A stretch of 64,000 nt of DNA from Takakia lepidozioides (GCA_030704615.1 CM060731.1:54560001-54624000); one strand, 5' to 3'. Positions 7,608-64,000 are shown, counted from the stretch's first letter. The notes: generated from the sequence alone by a model not told the origin. A program made the numbers and translations.

Positions 7608-7631
7608 GAGAGAGAGAGAGAGAGAGAGAGA
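7608..7631. repeat. (GA)n microsatellite in the presumed 5' UTR of the EMS1-like gene
   Basis: Direct reading; about 45 bp upstream of the ATG at 7677. Confidence 0.9.
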
Positions 7632-7676
7632 AGGAAGGGGATTAGTGGTAGAGCTACACATGCATGTGTGAGTGAG

Positions 7677-16024: not shown

Positions 16025-16096
16025 AGGAGGCAACCGGGGTCGAACCGGTGACCTATCGGACTGCAGCCGATTGCTCTACCACTGAGCTATACCTCC
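16025..16096 (-). tRNA. tRNA-Cys (GCA)
   Basis: Minus strand GGAGGTATAGCTCAGTGGTAGAGCAATCGGCTGCAGTCCGATAGGTCACCGGTTCGACCCCGGTTGCCTCCT. It has a 7-bp acceptor stem, D arm, ATCGG/CCGAT anticodon stem with GCA, a TTCGA T-loop and a U73 discriminator, with a T-run ~30 nt downstream. Confidence 0.95.
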
Positions 16097-36150: not shown

Positions 36151-36203
36151 ATGATAAAAAACTAGGTTTGTAAGACTCGTAGGAAAGGTAATGTGACTTA
36201 CCT

Positions 36204-36205
<2 letters not shown>

Positions 36206-36248
<43 letters not shown>

Positions 36249-36304
36249 GAGAGAGAAAGAGAGAAAGAGAGAGAGGGAGAGAGAGAGAGAGAGAGAAGAG
36301 AGAG
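36206..36304. repeat. Long imperfect (GA)n microsatellite
   Basis: Direct reading; ~100 bp. Confidence 0.95.
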
Positions 36305-37847: not shown

Positions 37848-40800
37848 ATGGAGCCTGACAGAGCGGCTGCCCACCTGCTCCGGTGTTGAGAGCGTGACGA
37901 TGCTCTTTGGCAACGTGAAGAGGCCTGCTGTCGAGAGTGTGGTATCAACAAGTGCACATGCCCTTGCAGGAAGTGTAAGGGTGGAGGACGACCTGTCGCG
38001 TTAGACAGAGTGAGAAAACATCTAATGGAGATTGGCAGATCCCCTACGTTCAGATCCTAGAGAGGAGCAAGGAGGCATGCTTCTGACAATGAATGGGAAA
38101 AGGAGACGGTACCATGGACGTCGGTCAAGACGTAGCTTCAGCAAATGGAGGGATTAATCGAGATCGTGTTGCTGGAATCGTAGGACAGCCTCACCGGACA
38201 CATGGAGAACTGGACATGAATGTTGAGGTGCAGCGCATGATCCAAGAGACTTTCAGATCATAGACACACCTGAAATTGCAAATGGGGCAGAAGTGGAGTT
38301 AGATGATATAGATATTCAATGTACAAACACCCCACCAGAAGCCCATGACCCGGTTGCGGGTGGGGACTCTCATACTGATGATCCCATCTCATTGGAAGAG
38401 GCATGTCTACCTTTATATGAAGGCTATAAATCCTCTAAGCTTGCAGCCACCATGCTTATAATGAATCTATGCGCAACACACGGGGTTACAAATGGCTTTG
38501 CGGATGAAATGTTCTCTTTGCTGCAGAAAACCTTGTTGCCACAACCAAACGTACTACCCACATCTTTCTACCATGCATAGACCATGGTGAGCAAGCTTGG
38601 GCTTGCTTATGAGAAGATCGATGCTTGCCCAAAGGGGTGTGTGTTGTTTAGGGGAACTTGAAAACTTCAGAGAGGTGCCCCGAGTGTCAAAGCGCTCGAT
38701 TAAAAAATGTGGGGAAATCCAAGGTACCTGTTAAGGTGCTTCGACATTTTCCATTGATACCACGCCTTTTGCGTATGTATAGATGCTCTTCTATTGCAAA
38801 ATTAATGACTAGCACAGTCGGAATGCAAGCAACAATGGCCTTGTGCACAATGCAACTGATTCAAAGGCTTGGAAATACATTGATGCTACTTGGCCCGACT
38901 TTGCAGCAGAGCCTCTCAATGTAAGGCTTGGTTTTTCCTTCGATGGAGTCAACCCGTTTGGTGATAAGAACAATTGCTGGTCAACATGGCCAGTGTTGAC
39001 GCTGGTATACAACCTACCTCCGTGGCTCACTACAAAGAAGTTCTTTGTCATGCTTACTCTCTTGATTCCAGGAAAGCAATCAGTTACAAGTGAGCACATA
39101 GATGTGTACTTAGCACCATTGATGGAGGAGTTACTTGTTTTGTGGAGGGGGGTTCGGGCATATGACATATGCAAACCTGTTGGTGCGAGAACCTTCATAC
39201 TACGCGCCATACTACTGTGGAGCATCCACGATTTTCCTGCTTATGGCCTACTTGCAGGATGTGTCACAAAAGGCTATAAAGGGTGTCCACTATGCGGTCC
39301 TCATATAAATGCAAGACACTCTAAAGTTCAGGGCAAAACTATCTATCAAGGTCACCGCAGGCTCCTCCCTTAGGCCCATCCATACCGCAGGAACCGCATA
39401 CACTTCAATGAACAGGTGGAGATGCGTGTGAAGCCACCTCCATTCACACCGGTTGAACAAGATGCCGCTGGGGTTGAGGCTGAAGGTTATGACCTTGACC
39501 CCCGTGCTTTTCTTGATGCTGAAGTTCATCCAACCAAGGTTCATGGTATCAAAAGGCGCAGCTGCCTATGGGATTTACCATACTGGAAGGTACCCCCTGC
39601 ACTTGTACTTGTTTGAGTTCAATGTTCTTTGTAAATGGAAAAGGTAGTGCCCCTGTAGTGGTTACTTCTTACTTTCCGAATGGTAAAGTAGCAGTACTGC
39701 ATGTAATTTGGACTTCACATTAATAACTCGTGGAATGGTAAGAGGTACTATCCATAATGCTTAGGAAGTTGTTGACATCACTTGAGAGGCTAATAATGCA
39801 CTAAATGAGTTGTTTGAACCACTGAGGAGGACTGTCATGCATCACAACCACTTTAGACATGGAAGTATATAATGTTCATAAAAGAATTTGATTTGTATAG
39901 GACTGCAATCTGTCGGAATGTTCCTGAAATGGTGTCACCAATTGCAGGATCTGTTGCAACGCTACTTACTGGATCCCATGAATTGCGAAAAGATTTTTTG
40001 TGAAAACTTGTTGAAGACGATTTTCGGACGGAAGGACATGGTGAAGGTAAGGAATGACATGGAGGTAATCGGCATCAGATGTTACTTGTACCTTTGGCCT
40101 GATCCACAGAACCCTTCACGTATCATGAAACCAGCAGCACCGTATGTTCTCACTCCCGCTGAAATCACGATATTTCTTGATATTTTGGGGGCAATCAAAA
40201 GTCCTTCGGGATTTGCAGGTGCATTTCAGAAACACATACACCTGTCTAAGAAACGTTTGACGAGTATGAAGTCCCATGATTATCACATTTTAATGCAACA
40301 GATTTTACCTATGTGTATTCGCCATTGCATGGCTCCAGGCCCACGTGGGGTCATTATGCGTGTGAGTCGCATTTTCCATCGGATTTGTGCCAAAGTATGG
40401 GACCCTAATGAAATAGATTCATTGTGTGAGGATGTTGCTATAACCTTGTGTCTGTTAGAGAAAGAGTTCCCCCCTTCTTTCTTTGATGTCATGACCCATT
40501 TGCTAGTTCATCTCGTAGATGAACTAGACACATGTGGTCCGGTGTCTTCACGGTGGATGTATCCCATGGAGCGTTACATGAAAGATCTCAAGGGATACGT
40601 TAGGAATTACGCAAAGCCAGAAGGGAGTATGGCTGCAGGGTATGTTCTTGATGAGTCTATGGGGTTCATGAGTGAGTATATGCAATCATTTGATGCAACT
40701 CAACGGCGGATTTGGGATGCAAATGCGGATGAAGGGGTTGAGAACGAGGTCTTGGAAGGTGTCGGTAAAAAGCGGGACATGAGTGGAGCTGAGAGAGATG

Positions 40801-42050
40801 CAGCACATTTGTATGTGCTGAACAATACCAATGTGATGGTTCCTTGGGTGTAGTGAGTTCTTCTTTTCATTACACCTTATTAATATCAAGTTCAATTGCA
40901 ATTGTGACTGTCCCAGTGTAATAAAACCACCCACAAAGTCACAAATGTCAGTGGTTCATCGGGATTATAACCACTTCTGTAGTAACTGAATGTCTAAGTG
41001 AGTGACTATTTGGAAGAGCATGTTCATTTACAAGTCATTTTGCTCACTCATCCAGTGGTTTTCAAAGTATCATTCATGCTAGATATTTTTTGTAAAGTAA
41101 TGCAACACTTCATTGCTAACATGTGTCATTCTTGTTGTCATTTTGTGACAGAAAGTATGCAACAGAGAAGGCACAGTTCACTACAGACAGAGAGGCATAT
41201 GCTCGTGAGTGACGTGCCAATCGTCGACGTCACCGCAGCCTTCCGGTGCCATACCCTCCCCATTTGTTGGAGTTTCCACCCCTACCAGTATGGATACGCT
41301 GTGTAGTCCAGGCCCATGTCTCTGAGCTTAGTGTTGAGGATACGGATGTAATTCATTTGTCTACTCCCCCCTCATTGAGATCAGCTTCATTTCGTGGCAT
41401 GAAGGCATATGGAAATCATTATCGAGTGGATGACACGGAGAGTCATCTTCTTGTCTCTTTTGATTCCGGAGTTGCATCCGTCTTCCAGCAACAGAGTAGA
41501 AATAGTGTGCGTGATAGAAATCCAGTCATGTCACCATTAGAGTACGTTGGGGTCATCAAAGAGATATTGAAATTGGATTATGGACGAGTGCACCCCATTG
41601 TATTTTGTTGTGCTTGGGTGAGGGCCAACCTTGTTGGGCGAAATGCTACAATGAAGTGGGATTTGTATGGTTTTCTACTTGCGAATTTTGGGAGGATGTT
41701 ACCCGCCAATGATCAGCCGTTCATCTTTCCATCTCAAGTTGAACAGATGTTCTTTTCGGATGAGTCCCCAAGTTCGGAGTGGAAGGTAGTCCTTCGGAAG
41801 GATCCAAGAGCAAAAAAAATTGTGGTGGACATAGATCAATGTGACATTGGAGAAAATGCAGATTTCGATGGCCTTCAGGCACCGTCTACCTTATCAGATC
41901 AGCCAATACCTAGGTCATTAGATGGTGCCACGGCTCTAAATAAAGAAGACCTGGCTATGTTGGCTACCATTCAAGTGGGGCATTTGTGCAACCAACCGCT
42001 ATTCCAGTTGAGCAAAGTGATTCAGAGGGTGACGAATATGTTTCAGATTC
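37848..42050 (+). pseudogene. CACTA TnpD/Tnp2 transposase (transposase-associated, Tnp2 core, DUF4218- and DUF4216-like regions), disrupted
   Basis: CTCPCRKC...VRKHL; IDACPKGCVLF; NVRLGFSFDGVNPFG...STWPV...YNLPPW...HDFPAYG; MKSHDYHILMQQILP...FFDVMTHLLVHL...GPV..RWMYPMERYM...PEGS; YVGVIKEILKLDY...QPFIFPSQV. Several stops and frameshifts. Confidence 0.92.
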
Positions 42051-42719
42051 AGAATAAAGTTTATTGTTGGAACCATTTGTTCAATAGCATCATCCTACAA
42101 TGGTCTGGACACTTGTCTGTTTTCAAAGTCTGTCACAGCTACACAAACCACTTAAAGTTTTTCATGTATCACCAAAAAAATGGTACTAATCACTGTTGTG
42201 TAGGCAACCACTCATGAGCAACCACTAGAATAGTGGTTCCAATTACTGCAGTATCTTTCACCACCCATTCTCCACCACTGTCAAAGTGATACAAATCAAT
42301 GAGGTGTCTTTAACCACTCAAGATCAACGTGCACGTCCCCGTCCACATGGAATATTATATTATATTAATTAAAATATATTTCCAAATCATAAATCATAAA
42401 TAAATTTTGAATTATTACACGTGGAGTAGCAAGTGGTTTCAACCACTTCCCATCACTGAGGTGTCTATAACCACTCACAATGTACCACTACACTGGAATA
42501 TTATATTTTATTAATTAAAATATATTACCATATAAATAATAATAAATTATTACACGTGGACTACTGAGTGGTTGAAACCACTTCCAACCACTGTCTGTGA
42601 TGCCACCGTGGCATTTCATTGGGATTAATCACTGGCAAGTGGTTAATAGTGGTTTATAGAGTGGAAAAAGACAATAGTGGTTAAAGGGCCAGTGGTTATT
42701 CTGCGTTTTTCTTCTAGTG

Positions 42720-49242: not shown

Positions 49243-49253
49243 TAGAATTAGGC

Positions 49254-49338
49254 TGTCGTGCGCATACATATCGCTACACAACTACATCGCTATCCAAACC
49301 ACACCACACATATATGCACAATAAAGTAGTCTGCCACA
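49254..49338 (-). repeat. Terminal partial LTR (segment A, 85 bp) of copy 1
   Basis: Reverse complement of 50856-50940 with one mismatch; ends ...GCGCACGACA at 49254. Confidence 0.9.
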
Positions 49339-49339
49339 A

Positions 49340-50837
49340 TAGTGCGGCATGCCCATGAGGAGTTGGGGCATTTTGGGGTGCGACGCACTCATAGTCTACT
49401 GCAGGGGCAGTATTGGTGGCGTGGTATGCACACAGAGGTGCAACAATTTGTGGCTAGGTGCATGGTGTATGACAGGGTGCGTGCTTCATTCATCGCCCCT
49501 ACTCCACAATTGCACCCTCTTCCGATCATGGGATTGGGCTACAGGTGGAGTCTTGACTTCGCAGGGCCGTTGCCACTGACCATGCGCCACAACAAGTACG
49601 TGTTGGTGATGGTGGAGCACTTCTCCAAGTGGATTGAATTGGTTCCATTGCCTGATAAGGCTAGTGAGGGAGCTGCGTATGCATTCTTGGATTGTGTGCT
49701 TAGCCGATTCGGTGCTCCAGCTGAGGTACTCACGGACCAAGGGAGAGAGTTCTTGGGGGAGTTTCAGGCTTTGTGTGACAAGGCCTTGATAGACCACTGC
49801 ACCACTTCTCGGGATCATCCTGAGGCCGATGGCTTGGCAGAGAGAGTTGTTCAGACAGTAAAGAGGGGTTTGCGCAAGTATGGCTTGCAGACGGGACACC
49901 TAGGAGATTGGGACCTTCAGTTACCCTGGTTAGCCATGGGTTACAGGTTCAGCAAGCAAGCATCACTTACCTCCTTCTCACCATACTTTCTTCTCTTTGG
50001 CCGAGAGCCGGATTTGCCTACATCCATTCGCAGAGAAGCTGCTACAGTTCTTAACCTTGACGATCCGGACGTGTGGGCACGTGCATGTGAGCAGCGTGCA
50101 GAGTTGTTCAAGAGAGTCATGCCCATGGCTTTCGAGAACCTTGCCATTGCACAACACCGTGATACGTTGAGGTATGCTACCATACGTGGTGGGGGCTATC
50201 GTCCTGGGGTTCGGAGATTCAACCCTGGTGACTATGTCTATCTGCAGCAGACTGCTCCTACGACCCTGGATGTGACTGCAGGACGTGTTATTTTGAGGGT
50301 TCGAGAGGTCTTGTCCTCAGGCGTCTTGGTCTTGGAGGGTCGGGATGGCATAACTTGGAAGGACCATGTGCGTAATTGTGCGCCATGTCACCTTCCGAAT
50401 GTCGATGGCAAGATTGACCCAAACCTGGCAGTGGTATCTGCAGGTTTGAGGTGCATGTTGTGTAAGTCTACTAAAGGGGCAGCCACCATGCTGGTGTGTG
50501 ATCGATGCTCTAGAGGTTGGCATATGGGATGCTTGACTCCACCTCTTGAGATGGTTCCAGATGGGGATTGGTTATGTCCACATTGCATTGGATAGTGGGA
50601 GTGGATACAACCATGGAAGGCTAACAAGAAACGCAAGGCCCAGCTACTATGAGACCTTGAACACACGAGATCCTGGCTCAAGTTCACAGATTGCAAGACG
50701 GCGACTAACGATGGGGCTACTCTTGTACCCGACCTCTTGGTCTATAGAGTTTGAGTACAATAGAAACAGTGATAGAGGACTTAGTACGGCTGTGGCTATT
50801 ACATCTTGTAGCTATCTGGAGGTAGAGGGACCTATCC
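49340..50837 (+). repeat. Inverted duplicate (1498 bp) of 51300-52797: integrase core, PHD and 3' UTR
   Basis: The 417-aa ORF 49342-50595 is identical in translation to the C-terminus of the 991-aa ORF. Three transitions noticed in the 3' UTR. Confidence 0.95.
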
Positions 50838-50840
50838 ACC

Positions 50841-51294
50841 AGCTAGGGGGGCGATTGTGGCAGACTACTTTATTGTGCATATATGTGTGGTGTGGTTTGG
50901 ACAGCGATGTAGTTGTGTAGCGATATGTATGCGCACGACAGCTGTCAAGTTAAATAAGCACAGTGTGAAAACAGCTAGAATAAAACTAGTTATTTATATT
51001 TAACACTTGGATTTAGGTCAAGTGTTAAATCAGGTGTCAAGTTTAGTTTGACACCTGGTCCGTCTTATCTTCACGAGAGCGGCAGTCGCGCAGCTCATCT
51101 CTCTGGAGTTGAGCCTGCGCGACCGAGCTCCTGCATGCGTTTAGATCTGAATGTACTCATGATGGGAGTGTAGGTTGTTGTGGGGTGGAGTCCCCATAGC
51201 TTGGGGTGCCCCTGGCTCGACTACTATTTCTAAGAGTGATGGTTTGGTTTTCATGTTTTGTGTCAACAGTGTGTTCTTGGGTTTTCTTATCACA
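50841..51294 (+). repeat. PPT (50841-50854) and complete LTR (50856-51294, TGTG...CACA) of the DNMT-gypsy
   Basis: AGCTAGGGGGGCG-AT-TGTGGCAG...CTTATCACA; internal palindrome GACAGCTGTC at 50937-50946; homologous to 62630-63156. Confidence 0.85.
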
Positions 51295-51541
51295 GATGCG
51301 GATAGGTCCCTCTACCTCCAGATAGCTACAAGATGTAATAGCCACAGCCGTACTAAGTCCTCTATCACTGTTTCTATTGTACTCAAACTCTATAGACCAA
51401 GAGGCCGGGTACAAGAGTAGCCCCATCGTTAGTCGCCGTCTTGCAATCTGTGAACTTGAGCCAGGATCTCGTGTGTTCAAGGTCTCATAATAGTTGGGCC
51501 TTGCGTTTCTTGTTAGCCTTCCATGGTTGTATCCACTCCCA

Positions 51542-54500
51542 CTATCCAATGCAATGTGGACATAACCAATCCCCATCTGGAACCATCTCAAGAGGTGGAG
51601 TCAAGCATCCCATATGCCAACCTCTAGAGCATCGATCACACACCAGCATGGTGGCTGCCCCTTTAGTAGACTTACACAACATGCACCTCAAACCTGCAGA
51701 TACCACTGCCAGGTTTGGGTCAATCTTGCCATCGACATTCGGAAGGTGACATGGCGCACAATTACGCACATGGTCCTTCCAAGTTATGCCATCCCGACCC
51801 TCCAAGACCAAGACGCCTGAGGACAAGACCTCTCGAACCCTCAAAATAACACGTCCTGCAGTCACATCCAGGGTCGTAGGAGCAGTCTGCTGCAGATAGA
51901 CATAGTCACCAGGGTTGAATCTCCGAACCCCAGGACGATAGCCCCCACCACGTATGGTAGCATACCTCAACGTATCACGGTGTTGTGCAATGGCAAGGTT
52001 CTCGAAAGCCATGGGCATGACTCTCTTGAACAACTCTGCACGCTGCTCACATGCACGTGCCCACACGTCCGGATCGTCAAGGTTAAGAACTGTAGCAGCT
52101 TCTCTGCGAATGGATGTAGGCAAATCCGGCTCTCGGCCAAAGAGAAGAAAGTATGGTGAGAAGGAGGTAAGTGATGCTTGCTTGCTGAACCTGTAACCCA
52201 TGGCTAACCAGGGTAACTGAAGGTCCCAATCTCCTAGGTGTCCCGTCTGCAAGCCATACTTGCGCAAACCCCTCTTTACTGTCTGAACAACTCTCTCTGC
52301 CAAGCCATCGGCCTCAGGATGATCCCGAGAAGTGGTGCAGTGGTCTATCAAGGCCTTGTCACACAAAGCCTGAAACTCCCCCAAGAACTCTCTCCCTTGG
52401 TCCGTGAGTACCTCAGCTGGAGCACCGAATCGGCTAAGCACACAATCCAAGAATGCATACGCAGCTCCCTCACTAGCCTTATCAGGCAATGGAACCAATT
52501 CAATCCACTTGGAGAAGTGCTCCACCATCACCAACACGTACTTGTTGTGGCGCATGGTCAGTGGCAACGGCCCTGCGAAGTCAAGACTCCACCTGTAGCC
52601 CAATCCCATGATCGGAAGAGGGTGCAATTGTGGAGTAGGGGCGATGAATGAAGCACGCACCCTGTCATACACCATGCACCTAGCCACAAATTGTTGCACC
52701 TCTGTGTGCATACCACGCCACCAATACTGCCCCTGCAGTAGACTATGAGTGCGTCGCACCCCAAAATGCCCCAACTCCTCATGGGCATGCCGCACTAACC
52801 GTGCCCGGTGTGTTGGGTGAGGCACAATCCTCACTCGACCATCCTCCCACACTCGGAGCAGGTGTGTCCCTTCCCACTTGAACCTTTTGGCTCGTTGTAG
52901 GATCCGATCCCTCTCCTTGGCAGTCACAGTGGCTGCAGTGTCTCCAGTGTGGACGTAGTCCAACACAACTGAATCCTCATGTATATCTTTGGCGCCACCT
53001 TGCTCCTTGTTGGCCTCAGGGTCCTCAGACACTTGATCTACAGTCATCCCTGTTGCAGGTCCAACCTGGCCTTCCGCTGCCAAGATACACAGAAATGCAG
53101 ATGCATGCCATCCGGGCACCATCTCCTGGTCCATCTCACCATGCCACCGAGCTCCAGTGTCATCCTGCTGGCTCGTGCATGGATTGCGACTCAACCCATC
53201 TGCATTGCGATTGACCAAACCCGGTCGATGCACCACCTGAAAGTCATACTCTTGAAGGATGAGTGCCCACCGTGCAAGCTTCCCTGTAAGCTTGTCTGAC
53301 TCCATCAACCACTTGAGTGGTTGGTGATCCGTGACAAGGGTGAAGAGATTGCCGTATAGATAGCACCTGAAGTATGCCACGGCCCACACTGCAGCTAAGC
53401 ATTCTCCCTCATATGAGCTATACTTAGACTCTCCAGCATTGTTCGAGCGGCTAGCATAAGCCACTACGAACTCTCTTCCCTCATCATCCACCTGTGTGAG
53501 CACCGCTCCAAGCCCCAACATGCTCCAATCTGTATGCAGCTGAAAAGGACGCCCCCTGATAGGTCGTCTCAAGATAGGCGCCGAGGTCAACCTCGCCTTG
53601 AGCTCTTGAAAAGCTCGTTCTTGCTCATCTTCCCACTGCCACTCCTGGTCCACCTTGGTCAGCTTGGTTAGAGCCTTTGCAATGGCACTAAATCCCTTAA
53701 CAAACCGTCTGTAATAGTTTGCTAGCCCCATGAAAGCTCGAACTCGGCTCACATCCGTGGGGCGTGGAACATGTGCAATGGACTCTACCTTAGTCTGTTG
53801 TACCCCCAATCCTCCAGGATATATCATGTGACCCAGATACTCAATCTGGTTGTGAAAAAACTTGCACTTGCCCGGATGTAACTTCAATCCGTGCGTCCTC
53901 AAGCGCTCAAATACCCCCTGAAGGTGTCTCTCATGCTCCTCCACCATAGCACTAAAGATGATGATGTCATCTATGTAGCACCGAGCAAAGTCCACCCCTG
54001 CTAGAATCCTATCCATGACTCTCTGAAACTCTGCAGGAGCATTCTTAAGCCCAAATGGTAAGAACCGCCACTGATATAGGCAATCCTTGCCGTGCTCATT
54101 GATCCCCCAGAATGCCGTCTTCTGCTTGTCCGCCTCCTTGATTGGCAACTGGTGATATCCGGATCGTAAATCCAAAGTGCTAAAGGCCTTCGCATGCCCG
54201 ATGGCATCAAAGATCTCCTCTGGTGTTGGCATGGCATACTTATCGGACTTGGTCTGACGATTTACAGGCCGGTAATCACCGCACATACGTCTCTCCGTCC
54301 AATTGCCATAGACATCCTTCTTGGCTGGCATCACTGTGGCTGAAGCATACTCTCCACCAGAGAGCTCCACCAAACCTGCCTCCCAGAGATCTTGAGTCCT
54401 CATCTGAATCAAAGACCTCTCCATGTCACTGTATCTATAGGGTCTCCGAAAGATTGGTGTGTCAGTGGCCAACTCAATACGGATCTCTTGACCCTTCAGT

Positions 54501-54676
54501 GCTCCCAAGTCCTTCAAACTGAAGGCAAAGCAATTCCTGTGAGCCCTCAGGAACCGCCGTATACGTCGTCTCTCTCCTCCGGTGACAATGGGTCCAATGT
54601 AAGGCTCCCAATTGTCCTCCGTAACTGCAACCTTAAGTCCAGTGGGCTTAGGGGTAGAGGACGCGTCCCGTGGTTG
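51542..54676 (-). CDS. Ty3/gypsy pol C-terminal part: RT - RNase H - integrase - PHD finger (uninterrupted frame)
   Basis: RMCGDYRPVN, LDLRSGYHQ, PFGLKNAP, YIDDIIIF; LHTDWS, ECLAAVWA, TDHQPL; HEELGH, WSLDF, TDQGREF, GLAER. C4HC3 PHD CMLC...CDRC...HMGC...WLCPHC. Confidence 0.93.
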   Translation of the reverse strand, partial: QPRDASSTPKPTGLKVAVTEDNWEPYIGPIVTGGERRRIRRFLRAHRNCFAFSLKDLGALKGQEIRIELATDTPIFRRPYRYSDMERSLIQMRTQDLWEAGLVELSGGEYASATVMPAKKDVYGNWTERRMCGDYRPVNRQTKSDKYAMPTPEEIFDAIGHAKAFSTLDLRSGYHQLPIKEADKQKTAFWGINEHGKDCLYQWRFLPFGLKNAPAEFQRVMDRILAGVDFARCYIDDIIIFSAMVEEHERHLQGVFERLRTHGLKLHPGKCKFFHNQIEYLGHMIYPGGLGVQQTKVESIAHVPRPTDVSRVRAFMGLANYYRRFVKGFSAIAKALTKLTKVDQEWQWEDEQERAFQELKARLTSAPILRRPIRGRPFQLHTDWSMLGLGAVLTQVDDEGREFVVAYASRSNNAGESKYSSYEGECLAAVWAVAYFRCYLYGNLFTLVTDHQPLKWLMESDKLTGKLARWALILQEYDFQVVHRPGLVNRNADGLSRNPCTSQQDDTGARWHGEMDQEMVPGWHASAFLCILAAEGQVGPATGMTVDQVSEDPEANKEQGGAKDIHEDSVVLDYVHTGDTAATVTAKERDRILQRAKRFKWEGTHLLRVWEDGRVRIVPHPTHRARLVRHAHEELGHFGVRRTHSLLQGQYWWRGMHTEVQQFVARCMVYDRVRASFIAPTPQLHPLPIMGLGYRWSLDFAGPLPLTMRHNKYVLVMVEHFSKWIELVPLPDKASEGAAYAFLDCVLSRFGAPAEVLTDQGREFLGEFQALCDKALIDHCTTSRDHPEADGLAERVVQTVKRGLRKYGLQTGHLGDWDLQLPWLAMGYRFSKQASLTSFSPYFLLFGREPDLPTSIRREAATVLNLDDPDVWARACEQRAELFKRVMPMAFENLAIAQHRDTLRYATIRGGGYRPGVRRFNPGDYVYLQQTAPTTLDVTAGRVILRVREVLSSGVLVLEGRDGITWKDHVRNCAPCHLPNVDGKIDPNLAVVSAGLRCMLCKSTKGAATMLVCDRCSRGWHMGCLTPPLEMVPDGDWLCPHCIG

Positions 54677-54974
54677 CTATGCTGCAACCTCTTGAGCAGT
54701 ACTTCCTTCCTGCTCAGTCAATGACAACGCCTCATCCTGCCCCATCATCTCATCATTGAGAACCTCCTCATCCCGAGAAGAATCCCCAACCTCATCCATC
54801 ACAGCTGCTTTGGCTGCCAACTCCCTCTGAACCTCGAGCACCCCCCACGTGTGCCATGGATGTCTACACCCCGTGGTCCTCACCGGCTCGCCCCCACTCG
54901 CTGCCTGTACCGTCTCGGTAGGCAGAGAGACCGTCAAGGGAAGTGCATTCCGCACTCTACGTTGCTCAGCCATA

Positions 54975-55926
54975 GCCAAGCTGATAATCCAAGTCAAGCG
55001 ATTGAGATCCATTGCTTGCCCCAACACCTGACGACATGATGCCTTAGAAAGAGAAGGCACCGCCGTGGTCCCAGTGGAAAACCCCATAGCCCGCTCTCGC
55101 TCGTCGGCATTAGGCTCCACTAACTGCTGCAACTGAGCATCCCACAGGAGGCCAGGTCCACCATCCCGAAAAGCATGGGATCCTGGGAAGCTGATTAGTG
55201 TAGGTAATGCTGCTTGTGGTTGACCCACCCTGTTGACCACTGCCAAAGGCGAACGGTCATCGTGTCTCACACGTTGAGACTGCCTCCCTGTGTCCAAAAT
55301 GCCATCCACGGTGAGGTGTGCTGACCGCTGCACCCCATCAAATGCACGCTTGAGCAGTGCGGGTGGCATCAAGTTAGTCCACCAAAGCCGTGGACGATGA
55401 GCCCGTGACCCCACTGTAGCTGCATCAGCAACGCTGCTGACCCAAGCCATGACCGGACTTGATGCACACTGGCCATCACCCTGGCCCGAGAATCACCCAT
55501 CAGTGGCACATTCTCCAAGATGTATGCTGGAGATACAGATTGATGAAGCTGCAAATGGCGCAAAACCCGCACCATCTCCCAAAACAGACCTGTCCTCAAG
55601 TCTCGCAATCCATTGCCATGCCCGGCTGATGAATGCCCTTGGCAGGGCCAACCTGCCACTACCAGATCAATGGAGCCAACCTGCTCCAAATCCGGCGCCC
55701 CCAGCAACGAAATGTCTGCTGGCAAGGCTTGTTGGTATCCACGAACTGCAGACACTGGCAACAAAGCAGGGTACTGCTGTACCAACTGAGCAACATGACG
55801 CAGTGAGACGCGTCGTGCAGTCTCATCCCTCTCCACATACAGGTAACGCCTTACTTGCACACCTGCCTGTAGCACAGCAGCCAATCCAGTGCTGATCCCG
55901 CCAAACAAGTCCAGAAGGCAAATGCC
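54975..55926 (-). pseudogene. DNMT3-like C5 cytosine methyltransferase domain within the gypsy polyprotein (one 1-nt frameshift at ~55426)
   Basis: Motif I LDLFGGISTGL; II RYLYVE; IV VVAGWPCQGHS (Cys codon 55642-55644); VI ILENV; VIII DAATVGSRAHRPRLWWTNL; IX/X ERERAMGF...RQVLGQAMD. Motif order is non-permuted. Confidence 0.92.
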
Positions 55927-56070
55927 TTCATTTGGATACTGCCACACAATAGGTGTGGTATCCAATGGTGACAACTGAGGTGGTCCTGGTGCAATACCCG
56001 CACTCTCCTTCTCTCCTGACGGTACAAAAGCCTCTACCCAGGCTTGTTGCACCCGTCGATCAGCATCCCG

Positions 56071-57144
56071 CTACAAATCCTTGCTCGTACCCCACAATGG
56101 AGTGTGAGCAACCAGGGCAGGCAACTCCGCCATACCATGCATGTCATCCTGCTCTGCTGGAGGTGGCACATCTTCTGCATGGGCATTGCTTTCCAGCAAC
56201 TCTCCAGGCCAACTAACTGCAGCTGTAAAGGCGGCTAGTGTTGGCATGTTGCCTCGCTGGGCAGCCGCAATACCCCCAATGAATGTCACAGGGAGCTGTG
56301 CACGACGACCATCCCCTGACTGCCATCCAGGCCTGTAGAATGCTGACTCCTCCCAAAAGTCCAGGGTGAAGCCCATGGGGTATAACACTGCCCCACCAAC
56401 GAGGACATCGTAAGAGACCGCGTCTGTCACAATGGCCTTGGCTCGCATGACTGAGCCATCGATAGGATGATCCGGCTGTAGTCTAATGGCCAACTGATGC
56501 CGTGTCATGCCCTGAGCCTGCTCTGATCCTCCCAGAGATGTCTGTATCTGGAAAGGAAAAGGCTCCATATCCGCCTCCATGAGGCCCAAACCTGCAATAG
56601 CAGCTCTGCCCAACATCAGTGGCTGAGCTCCCGAGTCCAACAAGACCCACAGTGGCCGGTACTTCTTGCCTGCCGGTCCACTCAAAGAGAAAATGCCATC
56701 CTGGTTGTCTAACAAGACAACTCCAGGTGTCACCATGGCGCGCTCAAAGGCTGGCCTAGCTGGCAGCTCCGTCAACCTGGCAGCTGCAGCTTGCCATGGC
56801 GCAGCCGTGGCAGTCTTGACCCTCAAATCCGAGGATCCCTCTGCCACTACACCTTCCAGTAACTCCGTAGAAGATGAAGTGACCTCCCCACTCTCACAGA
56901 GTGTTGCTGCTAGTCTGAACACTACAGCTGGTCTTTTCCCCGGCGTCGCAATCATGGTTGCCGAGAACAGTGGGGCTTGACACACAGAGGTGGCTGCCCC
57001 CAACAACACACCGGCTGCACTAGCCTTGGCAGCAGGTGTCAGTGCTGCACGTGTAGCTCTCCCCAATGGCATAGAAACCTCCGCCTCGGTAACAGTCGGG
57101 CGAGAACTAGGTGCCATGGATGGCGTTGACACTGTCTCCGCCAA
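56071..57144 (-). pseudogene. Gypsy aspartic protease region
   Basis: WVLLDSGAQPLMLG ... YDVLVG; the TAG at 56071-56073 is in frame with the downstream MTase ORF. Confidence 0.85.
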
Positions 57145-57329
57145 GGTGAATGACTGAGGCAGCCTCGCCTGACAGCTTGCCTCCCCACGTTGTGATCCAA
57201 CTCCACCTCTGCACCTTGTGGCTCAGGAACTCGTGCTGCTCCTCGAGTCACGGCTGCAGCAGACTCCACCTGCTCTAGTGGTAGTGCTGCTCCGCACATG
57301 AATCCCATGCCTCCCATATCTCCTCCTCG

Positions 57330-58866
57330 GGAGCAGGAGGTGGACCATCCCGCCTGGGAGCCGGTACCGCCTGAGCTATAGCCATTGCAGCGAGCCTCTG
57401 CTCTAGCTGCTGAAGCCGGTTGGCCATGCCTTGGTCAACACCCTGACCTCCGCGTCCGTGGCCATGTTGAGCTTGCCCTTGGCCTGCACCTCATGTCCGA
57501 TCACCTCGTCCTCTCTGGGCTGGTCCACCTCGCCCCCGGCCACCATTATTCCCTTGGAACTGGCCTGGGCGCAACTCAGGATGCAAGTCATAACACTGGG
57601 CATCTCCATGCCCATACTTGCCGCAATGCCCACACTGCAACTGTGCAGGCTGTGCTTGTACCGGCCTTTTGCCACTCTCTGGGCAATCTCTCTTGACATG
57701 GGGTCCTCCACATGTCCAACATATCACCCCTGGTTGTTGTTGGCCTGCAAAAGATGCCACGGGCCTCTGCACCTGAGGTCCCCTGTAAGCTCCATGGAAC
57801 TTGGGCTGGGCAACCTTGCCCCCCTGACCACGCTGTTGGGCAGTCCCTTGTGCCTGTGGGCTGATAGCTGTGCCCCGTGCAGGCATGTCCTTGCCAAATC
57901 CAATTGTAACAACTCGCTCCTCCACCATGTTGAGCTCAATCCGCTCAGCCAGCAGAAACACATCTGCTAATGTGGGTTGGGCTGCTTGTAACAAGGTTGC
58001 ATCTCGTACCCTTCTCTTGAGCTCCTTGTCCAGAATTCCATACCAAAACTGGACTGCCTGAGCTTCAGTAACCCCTTGGGTCACACTTATCAAGCGCCTC
58101 ATACGAGTGTACGCCTCTCGCAGGCTCTCACTGGGTTTGCGCTGGAAGTCTTGCAAACTTCGCAGCTTCTCTGTCTGTACACCTTGGTAGTTCCTCCGCA
58201 ACTCCTGGAAGAACTCCACCACCGGGTTGAATCTAGGCACATGTGTTGTAGTCGTGGCAGGAGGAGTAGTAGCACCTTTTGAACTGGTACCACCTGCAGA
58301 AGTACCGGCACTACTTGTTCCACTACTAGTGCTGGTAGTGGGAGATATTGATACTGATGCAGCTACTGGTCGCGTCGTGCCTCGAGTAATGGAGGCCTAG
58401 TCAGGTGACCAATACATCCTCCACTCCTCAATCTCCGCTTCATGTCCTCGCCTGAACTCGTGGTAATCGTCCATAGGCGGGCCTTCCAAATGCTGGAACA
58501 GTCCCTTCCACGCCATGAATGGAGTGAACAGTTGTGGATTGCGCATCTGCTGCAAATCACACCAGCTGTCGAACTCCTGGATAAAGTCATCCAGCTCAAT
58601 TGTGCCCACAGCTCCAGAGTACCTACGAGGCCCTTGGTAGCTCCATACATCTCCTCCATGTTGTCCCACAACAATGGCGAATGAAACTGCACACCTGTTG
58701 ATGAAGCCTCCGAGTCTGTGTCTGACTCTGCACTAGTTGAGGGTGGAGGTGAAGGTGGTCTGAAACGAACACCTCGTCTGGTGAACCCACTCTCACTGCT
58801 ACTGCCTGTAGCCGTACTCCTCTCAGAACCCCTGGGTAACTCCGTGATGACACTCACAATGTGCAC
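57330..58866 (-). pseudogene. Gypsy Gag with two zinc knuckles, disrupted
   Basis: LDDFIQEFDSWC; FQRKPSESLREAYTRM (Q...ES...Y..R homology region); CWTCGGPHVKRDC and CGHCGKYGHGDAQC; RGG-rich tail. Stops at 58397 and 57491. Confidence 0.85.
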
Positions 58867-59452
58867 CTCCCCCAGGTGACACTATAAGGCTCTATTACTA
58901 ATTCTAATAGTGACACGGATAGGCACCTGTTGCAGTTTAAGGGTCATATCCCAGTGGCTCAGGGCACTTGCACCTGCATCCACCGCAAGAACTCCTATGG
59001 TTGGCTGGTCATCAACCCAGCCTCACCATAGAAGAAACACTGGTGGTCTTGCTGGTCATCACTCCAGCCTCACCACCGACAACATACTCTAGGATTGACC
59101 GGTGATCAAATCCGGCCTAATCCCTATGAAAGCAAGCGCCCACACAAAACCAACATGGCGCACAGTCAAGCATGCAGGTGTTGGGGGGGATCCAAACACA
59201 AGAAATCAAAACATCAACACCCCCACACCAAAATCCAGCAGTAACGCTGATCCTGCAGAATATCCCAGCCCAAAACCCCGGACTGACTGGCCTCCACCAA
59301 GAGAGGCTTTGGCAACTACAAGTACAAGGTAATGAAAATAGTACAGAGATGGAGGGGAAGAATAGAAGCCCGACCCAGCAAGATCTAATCCTGATCTATG
59401 CTATCAACTGCCAGACTTCTCTCAAAGTGCCTCGCTCTGCATGATGGTAAGG

Positions 59453-62436
59453 TGTAGGAGGTATATCTATGTCCAGAAACCTGCCACTAACCTTGTCCCA
59501 AGCTACAGTAGCTCGCTCTAACCAACCCTCCTCCTCTTTTTGCCAAGTAGAGACAAAGCAACACTCTGCTATCTCCCGCTCACTGAACACTAAAGAAAAC
59601 AAAGGTGGGTCTGATAGTCTCTCAACTCGAAAGCTTTGAGACGGTTGCGGGGTGTCCTCATTGCGAATGACTGCATCTCCTTCAAACAGAACAAACTTGT
59701 CCTTGCTAATGAACCCCCGCTCGTGGTTGCCTTGTGCAGTGTCGCGCACCTCACTTCGGTAAGCTCCCCTTCAAGTCATAGTTACTCTGCTTTGATGCGC
59801 GCGCCTGACTCCCACCTGGACGCCGGGCCAACTCGGAGCTTCGGCTGCTCACTGGGACATAACGGTCCCCCCTTTGCTCTCCGAAGGACCCTCCACCTAT
59901 TTGGGCCTAGTGGAATTCCCTTTGGTAGATGGCAGTCCAGAACAGCTCCCCACTCTTTGGTCGCTTTCCGGCTCGCACGCTTACTCACTAGTTTTTGGTC
60001 ACCAACGGGCTTGTACCGTTCTCGGGGTTTACTACTCCCTATATATACTTCTGTAGCTGTCCGCGGGGGTTCACAACCAGCCATGCCATTTTATGGCGAA
60101 CCACCCGAAGACCCTCGATTCCCGGTGGTGAGTCGCGGTGAGTCTTGGCCCACTCACCGCGGCCCAAATGGACGTGATGAGTCCCAAGACTCCCCACGAC
60201 TCCCACCTCGAGGTCTCCACCCCATGGTGAGTCCTATGCCACCCCCACTAAGTCCCGCTAAGCTACCACCACCCCTTGTGGAGCCACCCGCACTGCAACC
60301 CGGTGTGCGGGGCTCCACCTAGTGAGCGCCTCCGCCTCCTTGAGTGCCTTGGGCACTCAAGGGTGCTTCAGCCCCGTACCTATCGCTGTTACTGCCCCCA
60401 CCACAGGGGCAGCCCCTCTTGTGTCCGAACCCCTGCCCTCAAGGCAAAGGGCCGCGACACACACCCCTACCAACAGGGAGTCGATGTCCTCATCGATTTG
60501 TCCATTTAGTGGAAACGAAACATCCAAGTTGTGGCGTCCCACATCAAGGAGTTTGTTTCCATACCATGGCGTCCATGGCAAAAGAACCAAACCCACACTT
60601 GACTCTACTCTCTACTAGCTAGTCGGCCGACTTCCTCCAAGTCCCGGCCAAGGGTGGAGCCTCTCCAGCTCTCCCAGTGCACTCTTCTTGGCCTACTTCA
60701 AGGCCAAGGAACGATCCTCCCCGAGGATCGAATCGCCTTACTGCAACAACATTGCTTGCGATTGCTCATGATGCGCTTTTGGCATCACATTGAGCAAGGG
60801 TTCCCTGGAACCCTCTTTGACTAGGAAGATAACCTTGAACCAACCGTGCGCCCCAATCACTACAATTGGGTCTGCCTTGGAATGCTGGCCTGAGGTACGG
60901 GAACACGCCGAAGCCGCACTACGACTTCGTCCGACGGCTACATGATTATGTACGTGAACGGAAGCACGTAGCTTCCGCGTTAGCCCGCACTACAAGGCAA
61001 CCCCTCGGTAGCGCAGAGTTATAGTACGCGCACGCGCCAGGTGCGCACTAGCACGTGAACTCCCAAAGAAGTCGCAAGTTTCCTTGCCCCTTGGATGGGG
61101 GTCACCCGATTTCGGCACTACGGAAACACACGATTAACCCAATTTACCTCTCCCACTTTATAAGCTAGCATGCATTCTACACACTAGCCAACCATACCAT
61201 GCATCACCATTCCAAACAAAATAGGACGCACAAACATTTGGAACCCATTTCCTTTATAACAAATTTTTGTACAATACAAGTTTTTGTAATGGATTCCTAA
61301 GCTAGCTAAGCCGGGCTAAGCATGCATTTCCTCCCCCACGCTCCAAGGTTGATGTCCCCATCAACGTCTTCCTCTTTTGAGGTCGCCCTTCGAAAGCTGC
61401 AACCGCCTCGGATGCGTTTCCCATTTCTGAGGCACGCACCCAAGATGCCTCCACATGATGATAGCCCTTCCATTTGACGAGATACTCCATTTCTCGGTTC
61501 CTGAACCTCCTCGACTTAAGTATTGCCTCCACCTCGTACTCAGGTTCATTTTCATGATCCAACAGCATAGGTGGCGGACGCACTTGATGCCGATTCGGAC
61601 GTGCTTCATCTTTGAAGTAAGGCTTCAAAGGGAGACATGGAATACTGGGTGCACCTGCTTTTGCCGGCAGCTCCCATTCATACACATCCTCATTCATAAC
61701 CTTCCGAATGAAAAAGGGTCCCGCATACGGAGGTACGAAATTCGGACTCACTTCGGAGGTAGTCGGAAATTCTGAGTTCAACCAGACCTCTGTGCCTGCC
61801 TCAAACTTCACTTCCCTCCCCTTCCGATTCGCCTGCCTTTCATACCGTTTCCTAGCTTGGCAATGTTGTACTTTGCGAGCTTCAACAAACGCTCGCGTTC
61901 TTCCAGTACCGCCGCTACGCCGGTTCTTCGACGTCCTGGGCGCCCAACTTGTCGGCACCAGAGGTGCTTTTCCATAGACCAATACGAAAAGGGAAACTCC
62001 CGCTGCGGAGTGTTTGTTCTGTGTTATATAACAGAACTCTGCCGCGTCTAAGGTTCCACCCAGTCTGTTTGGTCTGCCGACACGTAATTCCGCAAGATCT
62101 GCTTCACTATGGAATTCACCCTTTCTGTTTGGCCGTCGGTCGTAGGTCGGAAGGCGGTGCTCATCTTCAGCCTCGTCCCCATCTTCTTCCAAAGTGCTCT
62201 CCAGAATTTACTCGTAAACTTTGGATCGCGGTCCGAGACAATATCCTTCGGAACTCCATGATGCTTTAAGACGTGGGCGAAGTAAAGTCGCCCTGTCTCC
62301 TGCGCCGTTGCCGTCTCCTTGGTGGGGATGAAATGGCCCATTTTACTGAACCTATCTACCACCACCATGATTGCATCGAATCCTTTTGACAACGGCATAG
62401 CAGTCATGAAATCCATCGAGACGCTTTCCCAAGTCC
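59453..62436 (-). mobile_element. Chromovirus-type Ty3/gypsy fragment: integrase core, chromodomain, PPT and 3' LTR (59453-61326)
   Basis: WESVSMDF, VVVDRFSKM, SDRDPKF, DGQTERVN, PYAGPF; chromodomain EYEVEAIL...EYLVKWKGY...ASW. PPT GGGGGAGGAAA is followed by TG at 61326 and ...CCTACA at 59453. Frameshifted. Confidence 0.88.
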
Positions 62437-64000
62437 TGTCGTGCGCATCATACATATCGCTACACAACTACATCGCTGTCCAAAACCACACAACACATGT
62501 GCACACCCAACCACTAGTATACCACTAGTCTACCACTAGTCCAGCCACTAGTCCAACCACTAGGCTACAACTAGTCAGTCACTAGGCTGCCACTACGCTG
62601 CCCACTATGGCAGTCACTAGTCCACACAATGATAAAGAGGAAGAATACAAGCACGAGCTCATGCGAGCTCACAAAGCTGAAGCATAAACTCATGCATATA
62701 TATAACCTCATCACTCAAATACAAGTCAAGCCAAGTGCACCCCACGCCATGGGGAATCCACACTACGGCGCCATAGCTAGGCGCGGTGAGGCTCAACTCG
62801 AGAAAGATGAGCCTCCCGCGCTTGCCGTGAGTGAGATAACCACTCAGGGCCTAAAATCTGCCTTGACCCCTGGATTGACACGGGCCAATCCCAAATGTCA
62901 ATATGTAAAAGTAGCTATTTCTAGCAGTTTCCACTAGTGGTAAATAACTTGACAGCTGTCGTGCGCATACATATCGCTACACACACTACATCGCTGTCAA
63001 AACCACACAACACATGTGCACACCACACACTAGATACCACTAGTCTACCACTAGTCAGCCACTAGTCCAACCACTAGGATCAACTAGTCAGTCACTAGGC
63101 TGCCACTACGCTGCCCACTATGGCAGTCACTAGTCCACACAATCGCCCCCCTAGCTGGTGCTTAGGTCCCTCTAAGTCCAGGTAGCCACAAGATGTGATA
63201 GTGACCATAGCCTCACTAAGTCCTCCACCACTATCCCTACTACACTCAAACTCGATAGATCAAGAGGCCGGGTGCAAGAGTTGCCCAACGTTAGTCGCCG
63301 TCTTGCAACCTGTGAACTTGAGCTTGGGATCTCATGTATTGACTCCTATGAGCTTGGCCTCCCATGTCTTGTTAGCTGCCTCCAGTCATGTCCACTGCCA
63401 CTATCCCAAGCAGTGTGGACACAACCAATCTCCGTCAGGAACCTTCTCAAGAGGTGGTGTCAAGCATCCCATATGCCAACCCCTTGAGCACCGATCACAC
63501 ACCAGCATGGTGGCTGCCCTTTTGGCAGACAACAGAGCATGCACCTCAAACCTGCAGGTACCACTGCCAAGTTTGGGTCAACTCTGCCATCGACATTGGG
63601 AAGGTGACATGGCGCACAATTACGCACATGGTCCTTTCCAAGTATGCCATCCCGACCCTCTAAGATCAGGAACCCTGAGGGAACACCTCTCGAACCCTCA
63701 GAATAACACGCCCTGCAGTAAAATGTGAGTGCGTCGCACTCCAAAATGCCCCAATTCCTCATGGGCATGCCGCATAACCGTGCACGCTGTGTGGGGTGAG
63801 GCACAATCCTCACCCGACCACCCTCCCACACTCGAAGTAGGTGTATCCCTCCCACTTGAACCTCTGGGCTCGTTGCAGGATCCGATCCCTATCCCTGGCA
63901 GTCACAATGGCTGCCGTGTCTCCCGTGCGGAGGTGTCCAACACAGCTGAATCCTCATGTATATCTCTGGCACACCTAGCTCATCACTAGCCTCAGGGTCC
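62437..64000 (-). mobile_element. Second PHD-integrase gypsy (related subfamily), 3' end only, inserted into the chromovirus integrase
   Basis: Homologous to 51300-53020 (KDHVRNCAPCHLPNVDG, PHD remnants); same PPT CACCAGCTAGGGGGGCG-AT; end structure A(62957-63141)-B(62630-62954)-A(62437-62628). Integrase core deleted. Confidence 0.88.

Follow-up and report, generated by a model that had tools for sequence, protein, structure and literature searches.

A 64,000-nucleotide stretch of the genome of Takakia lepidozioides (GCA_030704615.1 CM060731.1:54560001-54624000), here called the window, contains on its minus strand a dead, decayed copy of a high-copy Ty3/Gypsy family with the order Gag, protease, DNMT3-like C5 cytosine methyltransferase, reverse transcriptase (RT), RNase H, integrase, and PHD finger. 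The first reading frame of this family, ORF1, codes for a Gag-protease-methyltransferase protein and ends at a conserved stop codon. It is considered probable that this stop is leaky and that the enzyme, as predicted, methylates newly made cDNA. The concept of a retrotransposon-borne DNMT3 has been known since 2018; for the bryophyte lineage and the readthrough layout, no report was found in the literature.

Organization and Decay of the Element

The assignment to Ty3/Gypsy is based on the presence of protease, RT (RVT_1-type), RNase H, and DDE integrase in that order. Pfam matches for RT, RNase H, integrase, and PHD were obtained within 51545-54676, with the RT motif YIDD at 53966-53977 and the PHD finger at about 51551-51685. 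Gag (Retrotrans_gag, E 0.002) and the protease stayed under the Pfam cut-off, and both align to relatives. The coordinates of all features are listed in Table 1.

Table 1: Features of the element and its surroundings, in window coordinates.
Feature	Position	Strand	Basis or remark
Terminal repeat B, outer copy	49252..49340	-	1 mismatch/89 to first B copy
Inverted duplicate of 51300-52797	49340..50837	+	3 mismatches/1498 nt
Polypurine-tract-like run ahead of repeat B	50838..50853	+	kept in L053, L060, and a third copy
Terminal repeat B, first copy	50854..50942	+	displaced by inversion
Terminal repeat A, putative 3' copy	50943..51299	+	position between B copies
3' untranslated part	51300..51541	-	reaches inversion breakpoint
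ORF2, unbroken, 1044 codons: RT, RNase H, integrase, C-terminal PHD finger	51542..54676	-	
Conserved stop and readthrough-type context, TAG CAA CCA	54671..54679	-	relatives; motif definition PMC3542737
Linker, weakly conserved, closes ORF1	54680..54979	-	
Methyltransferase domain (C5 cytosine, DNMT3-like) with ordered motifs I-X	54980..55938	-	
Premature TAG, private to this copy	56071..56073	-	sequencing runs
Linker and aspartic protease, DSG at 56629-56637	56074..57222	-	alignment to relatives
Gag, two CCHC knuckles (57683-57721, 57593-57634)	57368..58659	-	tblastn with P0006, 57%
Element 5' region	58660..59738	-	truncated at 59738 by nested insertion
Second family member, 3' end: integrase pieces, PHD	62436..64000	-	84-88% identical
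Repeats of second member: B, A-like spacer, B	62956-63143 (B), 62436-62630 (B)	-	

The outer copy of repeat B is likely the 3' end of the element, and sequencing run X1 shows a joint from 51278 to 50854. The 5' end of this copy lies beyond the window, a 5' copy of repeat A was not found inside the window, and similarity of the element's 5' region to the 5' regions of relatives was not found. In the relatives L053 and L060, split repeats of the order A-coding-B-A-B are present. This arrangement differs from two ordinary flanking LTRs with a tRNA primer site, and a TGG primer site after the 5' repeat A was seen in none of L053, L060, and L013. TG...CA ends with a 4-nt target-site duplication fit one of two relatives, L053, the case of L060 being ambiguous.

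Apart from the two TAG codons treated below, this copy carries a single frameshift near 55426 which breaks the methyltransferase. Gag is broken by one frameshift (near 58630) and by two stops (58397-58399, 57491-57493), and two further frameshifts lie near 57324 and 57200, just upstream of the linker and protease part. The earlier note on this DNA did not mention these upstream breaks, the PHD finger that follows the integrase, the split repeats, or the 3' end's near-perfect duplication in inverted orientation. The CpG depletion of the element is 0.50, inside the window's own range of 0.27-0.71; a CpG or CHG depletion signal specific to the element was not found.

The Methyltransferase Domain

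The motifs FGG (55905), GWPC (55653), ENV (55515), HRPR (55399), ERERAMG (55102), and LGQAMD (55024) were confirmed at their positions between protease and RT, where the earlier note had seen them. Their order is non-permuted, with motif I ahead of IV, VI, VIII, and X, and Pfam identified DNA_methylase (PF00145, E 6.9e-12) over 55372-56070. The DNMT3-like class, also proposed earlier, is borne out by profile comparison, in which DNMT3A reached 84 bits against 49 and 36 for DRM-type enzymes, 37 for M.HaeIII, and 28 for DNMT2; with a second profile, DNMT3A reached 87 bits. The predicted structure of the domain from the relative L048 (pLDDT 77) had DNMT3A/B in all of the top matches listed. A DRM-type identity was rejected, since the motif order is not permuted and DRM matches just the first half of the domain.

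Mammalian DNMT3A/B is the best solved match by profile and fold and shares the motif order. However, the identity is about 20%, insertions follow motif II and also lie in the target-recognition region, and the element is without the PWWP or ADD domain of DNMT3A/B, whose sequence preference is not transferable. The target-recognition residues of DNMT3A map ambiguously onto the retrotransposon domain.

It is also conceivable, though somewhat unlikely, that a plant host gene was not the source and that the domain, DNMT3-like by fold, goes back to a DNMT3-related group of bacterial or phage enzymes. Matches to phage methyltransferases extend over 98% of the L048 domain (89 bits), reach 66-72 bits on the same profiles, and tie with DNMT3A in a single-sequence search (35-36 bits); a phage protein was matched by Foldseek with E 1.9e-14, and in the Atlas phage clusters score equal to a streptophyte cluster. 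DNMT3A is nevertheless higher on both profiles, and in the 2018 tree the domains from Klebsormidium form a divergent clade grouped with Dnmt3 (PMC5890265). As phage enzymes come close to the scores of DNMT3A, a host DNMT3 is no more than a candidate source. This alternative bears solely on where the domain came from and leaves the favoured explanation intact.

The catalytic Cys is retained in 78/80 loci and the Glu of ENV in 77/80, while the arginines of motif VIII are retained in just 48/74 and 57/74 decayed loci. That Cys, ENV, and motif I are conserved favours a catalytic role. For the window against the loci, with synonymous sites saturated, the methyltransferase had a median pN/pS of 0.29 (n=80), compared to 0.40 for the protease (n=61), 0.36 for Gag (n=47), and 0.24 for RT (n=52). 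Between the window and L048, dN was 0.27 and dS 2.75; between lineages, the dN/dS of the methyltransferase is about 0.1. These substitution patterns show purifying selection on the methyltransferase, the outcome of the dN/dS comparison that the earlier note had suggested. Inside a Sphagnum-type family, the dN/dS values were 0.58 for the methyltransferase, 0.39 for RT, 0.62 for integrase, and 0.66 for protease; the value of 0.58 is attributed to decay after insertion and is not itself a sign of recent selection.

Proposed Role and Substrate of the Enzyme

Being encoded upstream of a probably leaky stop, the methyltransferase would be made in excess over RT and packed into particles at Gag-like amounts, and occasional readthrough of the ORF1 stop would append RT, RNase H, integrase, and the PHD finger. 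The protease would free the methyltransferase from the ORF1 product, after which it would act catalytically on freshly made element cDNA, and the PHD finger would guide the choice of the integration site. The benefit might be that a new copy arrives pre-marked, and is thereby shielded from treatment as foreign DNA or given a chromatin state.

We consider it unlikely that an active enzyme has a target other than particle cDNA, namely integrated copies in the nucleus or host chromatin, with self-limiting silencing as the result, or that the domain binds DNA without catalysis. Surplus ORF1 product would be expected to escape packaging in part, self-limitation is among the hypotheses given in the available text of the 2018 paper (PMC5890265), and a CpG depletion special to the element was not seen. 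However, the fusion to Gag and protease would tie the enzyme to particles, and the conserved Cys, ENV, and motif I speak against a noncatalytic role.

The Stop Codon at the End of ORF1

The earlier note had located the frameshift near 55426 and the two TAG codons correctly, and had taken both TAGs to interrupt one ancestral polyprotein. This holds for TAG 56071-56073, where a different letter was found in 536,834 of 538,301 depth (99.7%, run X1) and in 4/4 runs, whereas TAG 54677-54679 is conserved across relatives, and the ORF1 of the clade ends at it in a readthrough-type context. The window junction, TAG CAA CCA, matches exactly the motif UAG CAR YYA of tobamovirus-type (type I) readthrough (PMC3542737), as does that of L048.

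The junction is spanned by 54 of 82 sequences, 53 of which have a stop (34 TAG, 19 TAA) and one GAG, and the following codon is CAA in 54/54. After merging at 96% identity, a stop is present in 46 of 47 distinct copies, which represent just three deep lineages: the window, L048, and the Sphagnum-type family with 45 copies, mostly CAA CCC, one base off the CAR YYA consensus. The mean background stop frequency was 0.1-1.7% per codon over 1628 positions, with one Gag column reaching 0.62 in 16 copies, and CAR-YY followed decay stops in 14/1067 cases. Identity to L048 is highest at the stop (10-11 of 15 nt, versus 0-7 in the upstream linker). Intact ORF1 proteins from Marchantia, Calypogeia, Sphagnum, and further lineages terminate 94-114 residues past motif X. 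From this comparison of sequences, TAG 54677-54679 is native to the clade and not a product of decay. It is likely read through at a low rate, which would give plentiful Gag-protease-methyltransferase and scarce RT-integrase; for TMV, a readthrough efficiency of about 10% has been reported (PMC2754532). No stable RNA structure was identified 3' of the stop; in 4/4 cases the energy differed from that of plain shuffles by no more than about 2 SD. The junction stop is not among the 40 variants listed for the source species (of 40 + 207), a weak indication.

With the same anatomy, ORF2 might be expressed by splicing, using the TAG as 3' acceptor, from a separate transcript, or from an internal start, which appears quite improbable. 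The stop does end in AG, and in the Sphagnum-type family a T-rich run precedes it and an in-frame ATG follows two codons after; in the window and L048, however, neither the T-rich run nor the ATG is present at the junction. Named gene models of Marchantia and Sphagnum fuse the methyltransferase to RT through a shortened linker. The lengths that they omit nevertheless differ (40, 83, 105, and 116 residues, against 143-184 in the DNA), and thus resemble predicted introns dodging a stop. CAA CC is kept across lineages despite saturated synonymous sites, and a splice acceptor would not need it. The TAA copies form no replicating clade, which fits splicing. They are scattered over the tree (13 changes, shuffled mean 12.6), which points to decay and is compatible with the AG serving as a splice acceptor; as a discriminator between readthrough and splicing they failed. 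One contig of a presumed-RNA run crosses the junction gap-free, which has no bearing on expression or splicing.

The continuous Gag-to-integrase polyprotein with both TAGs as decay is almost certainly wrong for this clade: such a protein does occur in distant relatives (methyltransferase ahead of RT in one chain in 16/347 proteins, Closterium elements among them), the one GAG is found among the 47 copies, and in as many as 35% of copies a CAG-type codon has decayed to a stop, but a glutamine codon is present at the junction in 0 copies, all three deep lineages share the stop, and in other genera intact ORF1 proteins terminate at the same place.

Relatives and Spread of the Family

The methyltransferase is not a one-off insertion, in agreement with the earlier proposal. 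A protein search gave 60 matches, the top ones with 66-79% identity, with Marchantia polymorpha, Calypogeia fissa, and Sphagnum named, and among the best 80 of 243 metagenome stretches nearly all have protease and/or RT beside the methyltransferase. Intact annotated ORF1 genes are present in Marchantia polymorpha (Mp_4g09160, Mp_8g17980). The copy number in the source species is very high, as 35,872 contigs of run X1 map to 3.2 kb of the element. At E 1e-30 or better, 517 clusters were identified. Besides the named bryophyte relatives, hundreds of clusters occur in green algae, many with the methyltransferase after RNase H. Among 75 candidate viral contigs, one match was found, weak and unrelated.

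The trees are quick searches with SH-aLRT support only, for which the group with the methyltransferase after RNase H was randomly thinned (30 plus named rows, the matching subset, or 10). No named Klebsormidium methyltransferase was recovered; four retrieved Klebsormidium proteins are without a methyltransferase in the stretch examined, and three of them, included in the RT tree, fall outside the window's clade. A single origin of all methyltransferase-bearing elements is unsupported, as chromovirus and animal Gypsy rows are interspersed in the wider, midpoint-rooted RT tree.

As a tentative extension, an old Gypsy clade spread over the green plants, with a writer (methyltransferase) and a reader (PHD), may have reached land plants, where bryophyte members would have moved the methyltransferase before a programmed leaky stop, for loading at capsid level and methylation before integration. 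Such elements might be abundant enough to have shaped liverwort and peat-moss methylomes, with intact genes standing unrecognised in the Marchantia gene set.

Comparison to Known Systems

The earlier note had named retrotransposons bearing DNA methyltransferases as a precedent, correctly. In the available part of the 2018 publication (PMC5890265), KnitGypsy-Dnmt3 from Klebsormidium nitens is likewise a Gypsy element of a streptophyte; its Dnmt3-like domain is non-permuted and subject to purifying selection, and it has DIRS-like repeats of the order A-coding-B-A-B, seen here in relatives. There, the domain lies inside the Pol ORF with RT, whereas here it ends ORF1, in frame, before the conserved stop; a PHD finger is not mentioned in that text. 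The host here is a land plant with a very high copy number, that of KnitGypsy-Dnmt3 an alga, and direct descent is not implied. Methylation by the Klebsormidium domain in yeast was absent, a result called inconclusive by the authors. SymbioDIRS-Dnmt3, from the same source (PMC5890265), methylates CG de novo in yeast and shares the retrotransposon-borne Dnmt3 and split repeats, but is of the DIRS class, with a tyrosine recombinase, a dinoflagellate host, and the domain within Pol.

In plants, tobamovirus type I readthrough fixes how much short product is made relative to the long one, by the motif found exactly in the window and L048; the signal here would part Gag-protease-methyltransferase from RT-integrase. 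For SIRE1, stop suppression between pol and env is cited in the available text of PMC2829016. The DAM-LTR/EpiLTR elements, as described in the accessible part of the preprint (bioRxiv 10.64898/2026.05.21.726589), are also LTR elements with a DNA methyltransferase and a chromatin reader, but with an adenine methyltransferase, a DNMT4-related cytosine enzyme, and a chromodomain; they are reported absent from streptophytes, and bryophyte DNMT3 elements are unmentioned there.

Implications

What retrotransposons gain from a cytosine methyltransferase has been an open question since 2018, in part owing to hosts that are difficult to work with and to a Gypsy enzyme that showed no activity in yeast. 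The conserved stop offers a mechanistic clue, as it groups the enzyme with the capsid, the more abundant side of the expression ratio. With its 517 clusters, the family is far larger than the single alga described. One of its hosts, Marchantia polymorpha, is a genetic model for which methylomes, methyltransferase mutants, and intact ORF1 genes are available, so that activity, substrate, and effect become testable. Inventories of bryophyte DNA methyltransferases may omit or miscount such genes.

Anatomy of the Element and Its Family

The copy in the window is dead, with four frameshifts and three premature stops, and the last four domains are encoded in one unbroken frame (table). Two open reading frames are separated by a stop at 54677-54679, with Gag, protease and methyltransferase in ORF1 and reverse transcriptase (RT), RNase H, integrase and a PHD finger in ORF2.

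Features of the window copy, of its surroundings and of related loci on metagenome contigs
Feature	Position	Strand	Remark
Gag	58659-57368	minus	below Pfam cut-off; ~55% to relatives
Aspartic protease	DSG at 56637	minus	below Pfam cut-off; ~55% to relatives
C5 methyltransferase	55938-54980	minus	Pfam E 6.9e-12
RT, RNase H, integrase, PHD finger	54676-51542	minus	1044 codons; PHD Pfam E 2.8e-10
Frameshifts	near 58630, 57324, 57200, 55426	minus	
Premature stops	58397-58399, 57491-57493, 56071-56073	minus	
Frame of 124 codons, 5' region of element	59396-59770	minus	no Pfam hit, no match among relatives' loci
Chromodomain Gypsy element nested in 5' region	59739-62467	minus	LTR recurs at 1-480
Second family member	62436-64000		ends B-spacer-B
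Inverted duplication	49340-50837 vs 51300-52797		1498 nt, 3 mismatches
LRR frames, two, intron-poor	7539-12501		second with kinase domain (receptor-like kinase)
tRNA-Cys	16025-16096		
Multicopper oxidase	17450-19009		
Copia element and CACTA-type transposase pieces	21904-25699 and 32991-42217		285-nt LTRs (95% identical); 104-nt tandem repeats
Repeat A, locus L053	6141-6477, 14894-15230		
Repeat B, locus L053	14775-14889, 15230-15344		
More distant PHD-integrase Gypsy lineages, locus L060	3801-4693, 17717-18626		some with own methyltransferase
More distant PHD-integrase Gypsy lineages, locus L021	14859-16739		some with own methyltransferase

In the rest of the window, Pfam matches were identified in 9 of the 20 ORFs scanned, and its gene and transposon content is consistent with a land plant. 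The relatives of the element point to a bryophyte as the probable host.

With the first half of the methyltransferase as query, 60 matching proteins were identified among 4579 candidates, the best with 66-79% identity. Their named hosts are Marchantia polymorpha, Calypogeia fissa, Sphagnum troendelagicum and S. fallax; Riccia sorocarpa was added by a search with the RT frame and S. jensenii by cluster look-ups. Relatives are encoded in 243 of 447 candidate metagenome stretches, and in the best 80 of these 243 the order Gag, protease, methyltransferase, RT, RNase H, integrase, PHD is repeated as far as the contig extends. The methyltransferase, which the earlier note had described from a single copy, is a real, family-wide feature of the Gypsy element and no private insertion. 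The family is clearly very abundant in the source species, where 3.2 kb of the element is covered by 35,872 contigs of one sequencing run, evenly across protease, methyltransferase and RT, a depth which does not equal copy number. The more distant PHD-integrase lineages adjoin the main family within the same peat-moss-type contigs. Two members of the plant/algal retrotransposon family, P0467 and P0291, are deposited under bacterial names (Synechococcales and Minisyncoccia bins), probably by metagenome-bin contamination.

A Conserved Stop Codon ahead of RT

In Marchantia (P0006, P0007, P0010), Calypogeia (P0011), Sphagnum (P0555) and other lineages (P0023, P0570), intact ORF1 proteins end 94-114 residues past motif X with similar last residues; in the window, the junction stop lies 115 codons past this motif. 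The junction set comprised the window and 81 loci, 82 sequences in all; the junction is covered in 54 of them and missed in 28. The aligned codon is a stop in 53 of the 54 (34 TAG, 19 TAA) and GAG in one. It is followed by CAA in all 54, and the second codon after it is CCC in 50, CCA in three and CTC in one. When near-identical loci were merged into 47 copies, representing three deep lineages, a stop was present in 46. Background stops occur at a mean of 0.1-1.7% per codon over 1628 positions; at five positions the stop frequency exceeds 0.3, the highest being 0.62, in Gag, from 16 copies. CAR-YY follows only 14 of 1067 decay stops. Judged from these alignments, the junction stop is native to the element. 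For this clade, it overturns the proposal of the earlier note that the ancestral product was one polyprotein. Of the two TAGs bridged in that proposal, 56071-56073 has another letter in >99% of the depth in the source species, whereas 54677-54679 is the conserved stop at which intact ORF1 proteins end.

In the window and in L048, a deep lineage of its own, the junction reads TAG CAA CCA, matching the tobamovirus-type readthrough motif UAG CAR YYA (PMC3542737), at which readthrough in TMV is given as ~10% (PMC2754532). Readthrough at the junction stop is probable. A less probable alternative is that the junction stop serves as a splice acceptor, a role compatible with the TAA copies, which arose by decay and are scattered. 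In named bryophyte gene models which fuse the methyltransferase to RT, the linkers are shortened by differing lengths, which we read as predicted introns skipping the junction stop.

Class and Conservation of the Methyltransferase

The assignment to the DNMT3-like class agreed with the earlier note, and the Pfam match is to PF00145. A profile of 11 relatives compared to solved structures scored DNMT3A at 84 bits and DNMT3B at 75, followed by DRM-type enzymes (49 and 36), M.HaeIII (37) and DNMT2 (28). Against the same profiles, phage methyltransferases scored 66-72 bits, and in a single-sequence search they tied with DNMT3A; the domain may derive either from a host DNMT3 or from a phage enzyme. 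For the intact L048 domain, the predicted structure (pLDDT 77, pTM 0.82) had DNMT3A, B and C in all matches listed, the best at E 2.6e-15 and TM ~0.65. The motif I Phe is retained in 78/78 loci, the catalytic Cys in 78/80, the ENV Glu in 77/80, and the two motif VIII arginines in 48/74 and 57/74.

Neutral evolution, which the earlier note would count against the proposal, is not what the lineages display: with synonymous sites saturated, the between-lineage median pN/pS is 0.29 for the methyltransferase, 0.40 for protease, 0.36 for Gag and 0.24 for RT, the methyltransferase changing more slowly than protease or Gag. For the window versus L048, dN is 0.27 and dS 2.75. In the decayed Sphagnum-type family taken by itself, the methyltransferase has a dN/dS of 0.58, similar to other domains (0.39-0.66).

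Terminal Repeats and Priming

The repeat layout of L053 is also present in L060; in L013 the A pair is visible, and in L010 and L076 the B pair. A clear A/B-type pair was identified in 5 of 27 sequences screened, many of the remainder being incomplete or decayed. Between the window and the Sphagnum-type family, B has conserved ends. The inverted duplication at 49340-52797 has scrambled the 3' end of the window copy; its 462-nt loop contains the terminal repeats, and it arose either by rearrangement in the very recent past or as an artefact of assembly. An A-sized segment is flanked there by two copies of B, and a contig of run X1, from the source species, links this segment back to B. A 5' copy of A is absent from the window.

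The segment 59739-61300 is the LTR of the nested chromodomain element, because other copies run from 59738 into a primer-site motif which we take to be of the methionine-tRNA type. The integrase of this nested element is interrupted by a second copy of the methyltransferase family. No primer site of that type follows A in three relatives examined; priming of the methyltransferase family is therefore likely to be unusual.

The Wider Clade in Green Plants

When 1.84 billion representatives were searched with a profile, 517 clusters matched with E-values no worse than 1e-30. Among 347 proteins in a layout census, the methyltransferase follows RNase H in 194 and precedes RT in one chain in 16; 49 end after protease-methyltransferase, 67 consist of the methyltransferase only and 21 are without it. 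Named hosts of the after-RNase-H layout are chlorophytes (Haematococcus, Monoraphidium, Tetrabaena), and those of the fused before-RT layout are Closterium and Tetraselmis. The methyltransferase tree splits the two layouts (32 versus 45 rows, SH-aLRT 99), and the window falls into a group of 20 rows that includes Marchantia, Calypogeia and Sphagnum (SH-aLRT 99); two RT trees agree on this neighbourhood with support of 100 and 97.

P0464 (in one entry with P0456) is a Gypsy-PHD polyprotein carrying PF05869, presumably a phage-type adenine methylase; this relative would thus combine the PHD finger with another kind of methyltransferase. Some algal-type polyproteins (P0140, P0281, P0302) contain PF01585, which we take to be G-patch, besides methyltransferase and PHD.

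Proposed Mechanism and Relation to Known Elements

Domain order, conservation and junction stop are observed directly, and a chain of events may be built on them. The main product from the Gag start would be Gag-protease-methyltransferase, and a minor readthrough product would add RT, RNase H, integrase and PHD. Particles would take up the methyltransferase in capsid-like numbers, the protease would free it inside the particle, and the freed enzyme would methylate cDNA during synthesis, and the integrase-borne PHD finger would recognise the tails of histone H3 at the target site. The whole chain, from translation to cDNA methylation and PHD targeting, appears somewhat better than evenly probable to us.

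The precedent in Klebsormidium named in the earlier note exists: in De Mendoza et al. 2018, KnitGypsy-Dnmt3 has DIRS-like repeats, is under purifying selection and showed no activity in yeast, and the text and supplementary files searched make no mention of Marchantia or Sphagnum (PMC5890265). Two later papers of the same line refer to "streptophytes" with bryophytes unnamed, and their supplements may include land-plant sequences (PMC12344493; bioRxiv 10.64898/2026.05.21.726589). In the searches of the open literature, neither a bryophyte Gypsy-DNMT3 family nor a readthrough layout with the methyltransferase before the stop was found reported. What is new is a land-plant lineage and how abundant it is, the presence of a PHD finger and the breadth across green algae, together with a conserved leaky-type stop which places the methyltransferase on the Gag side.
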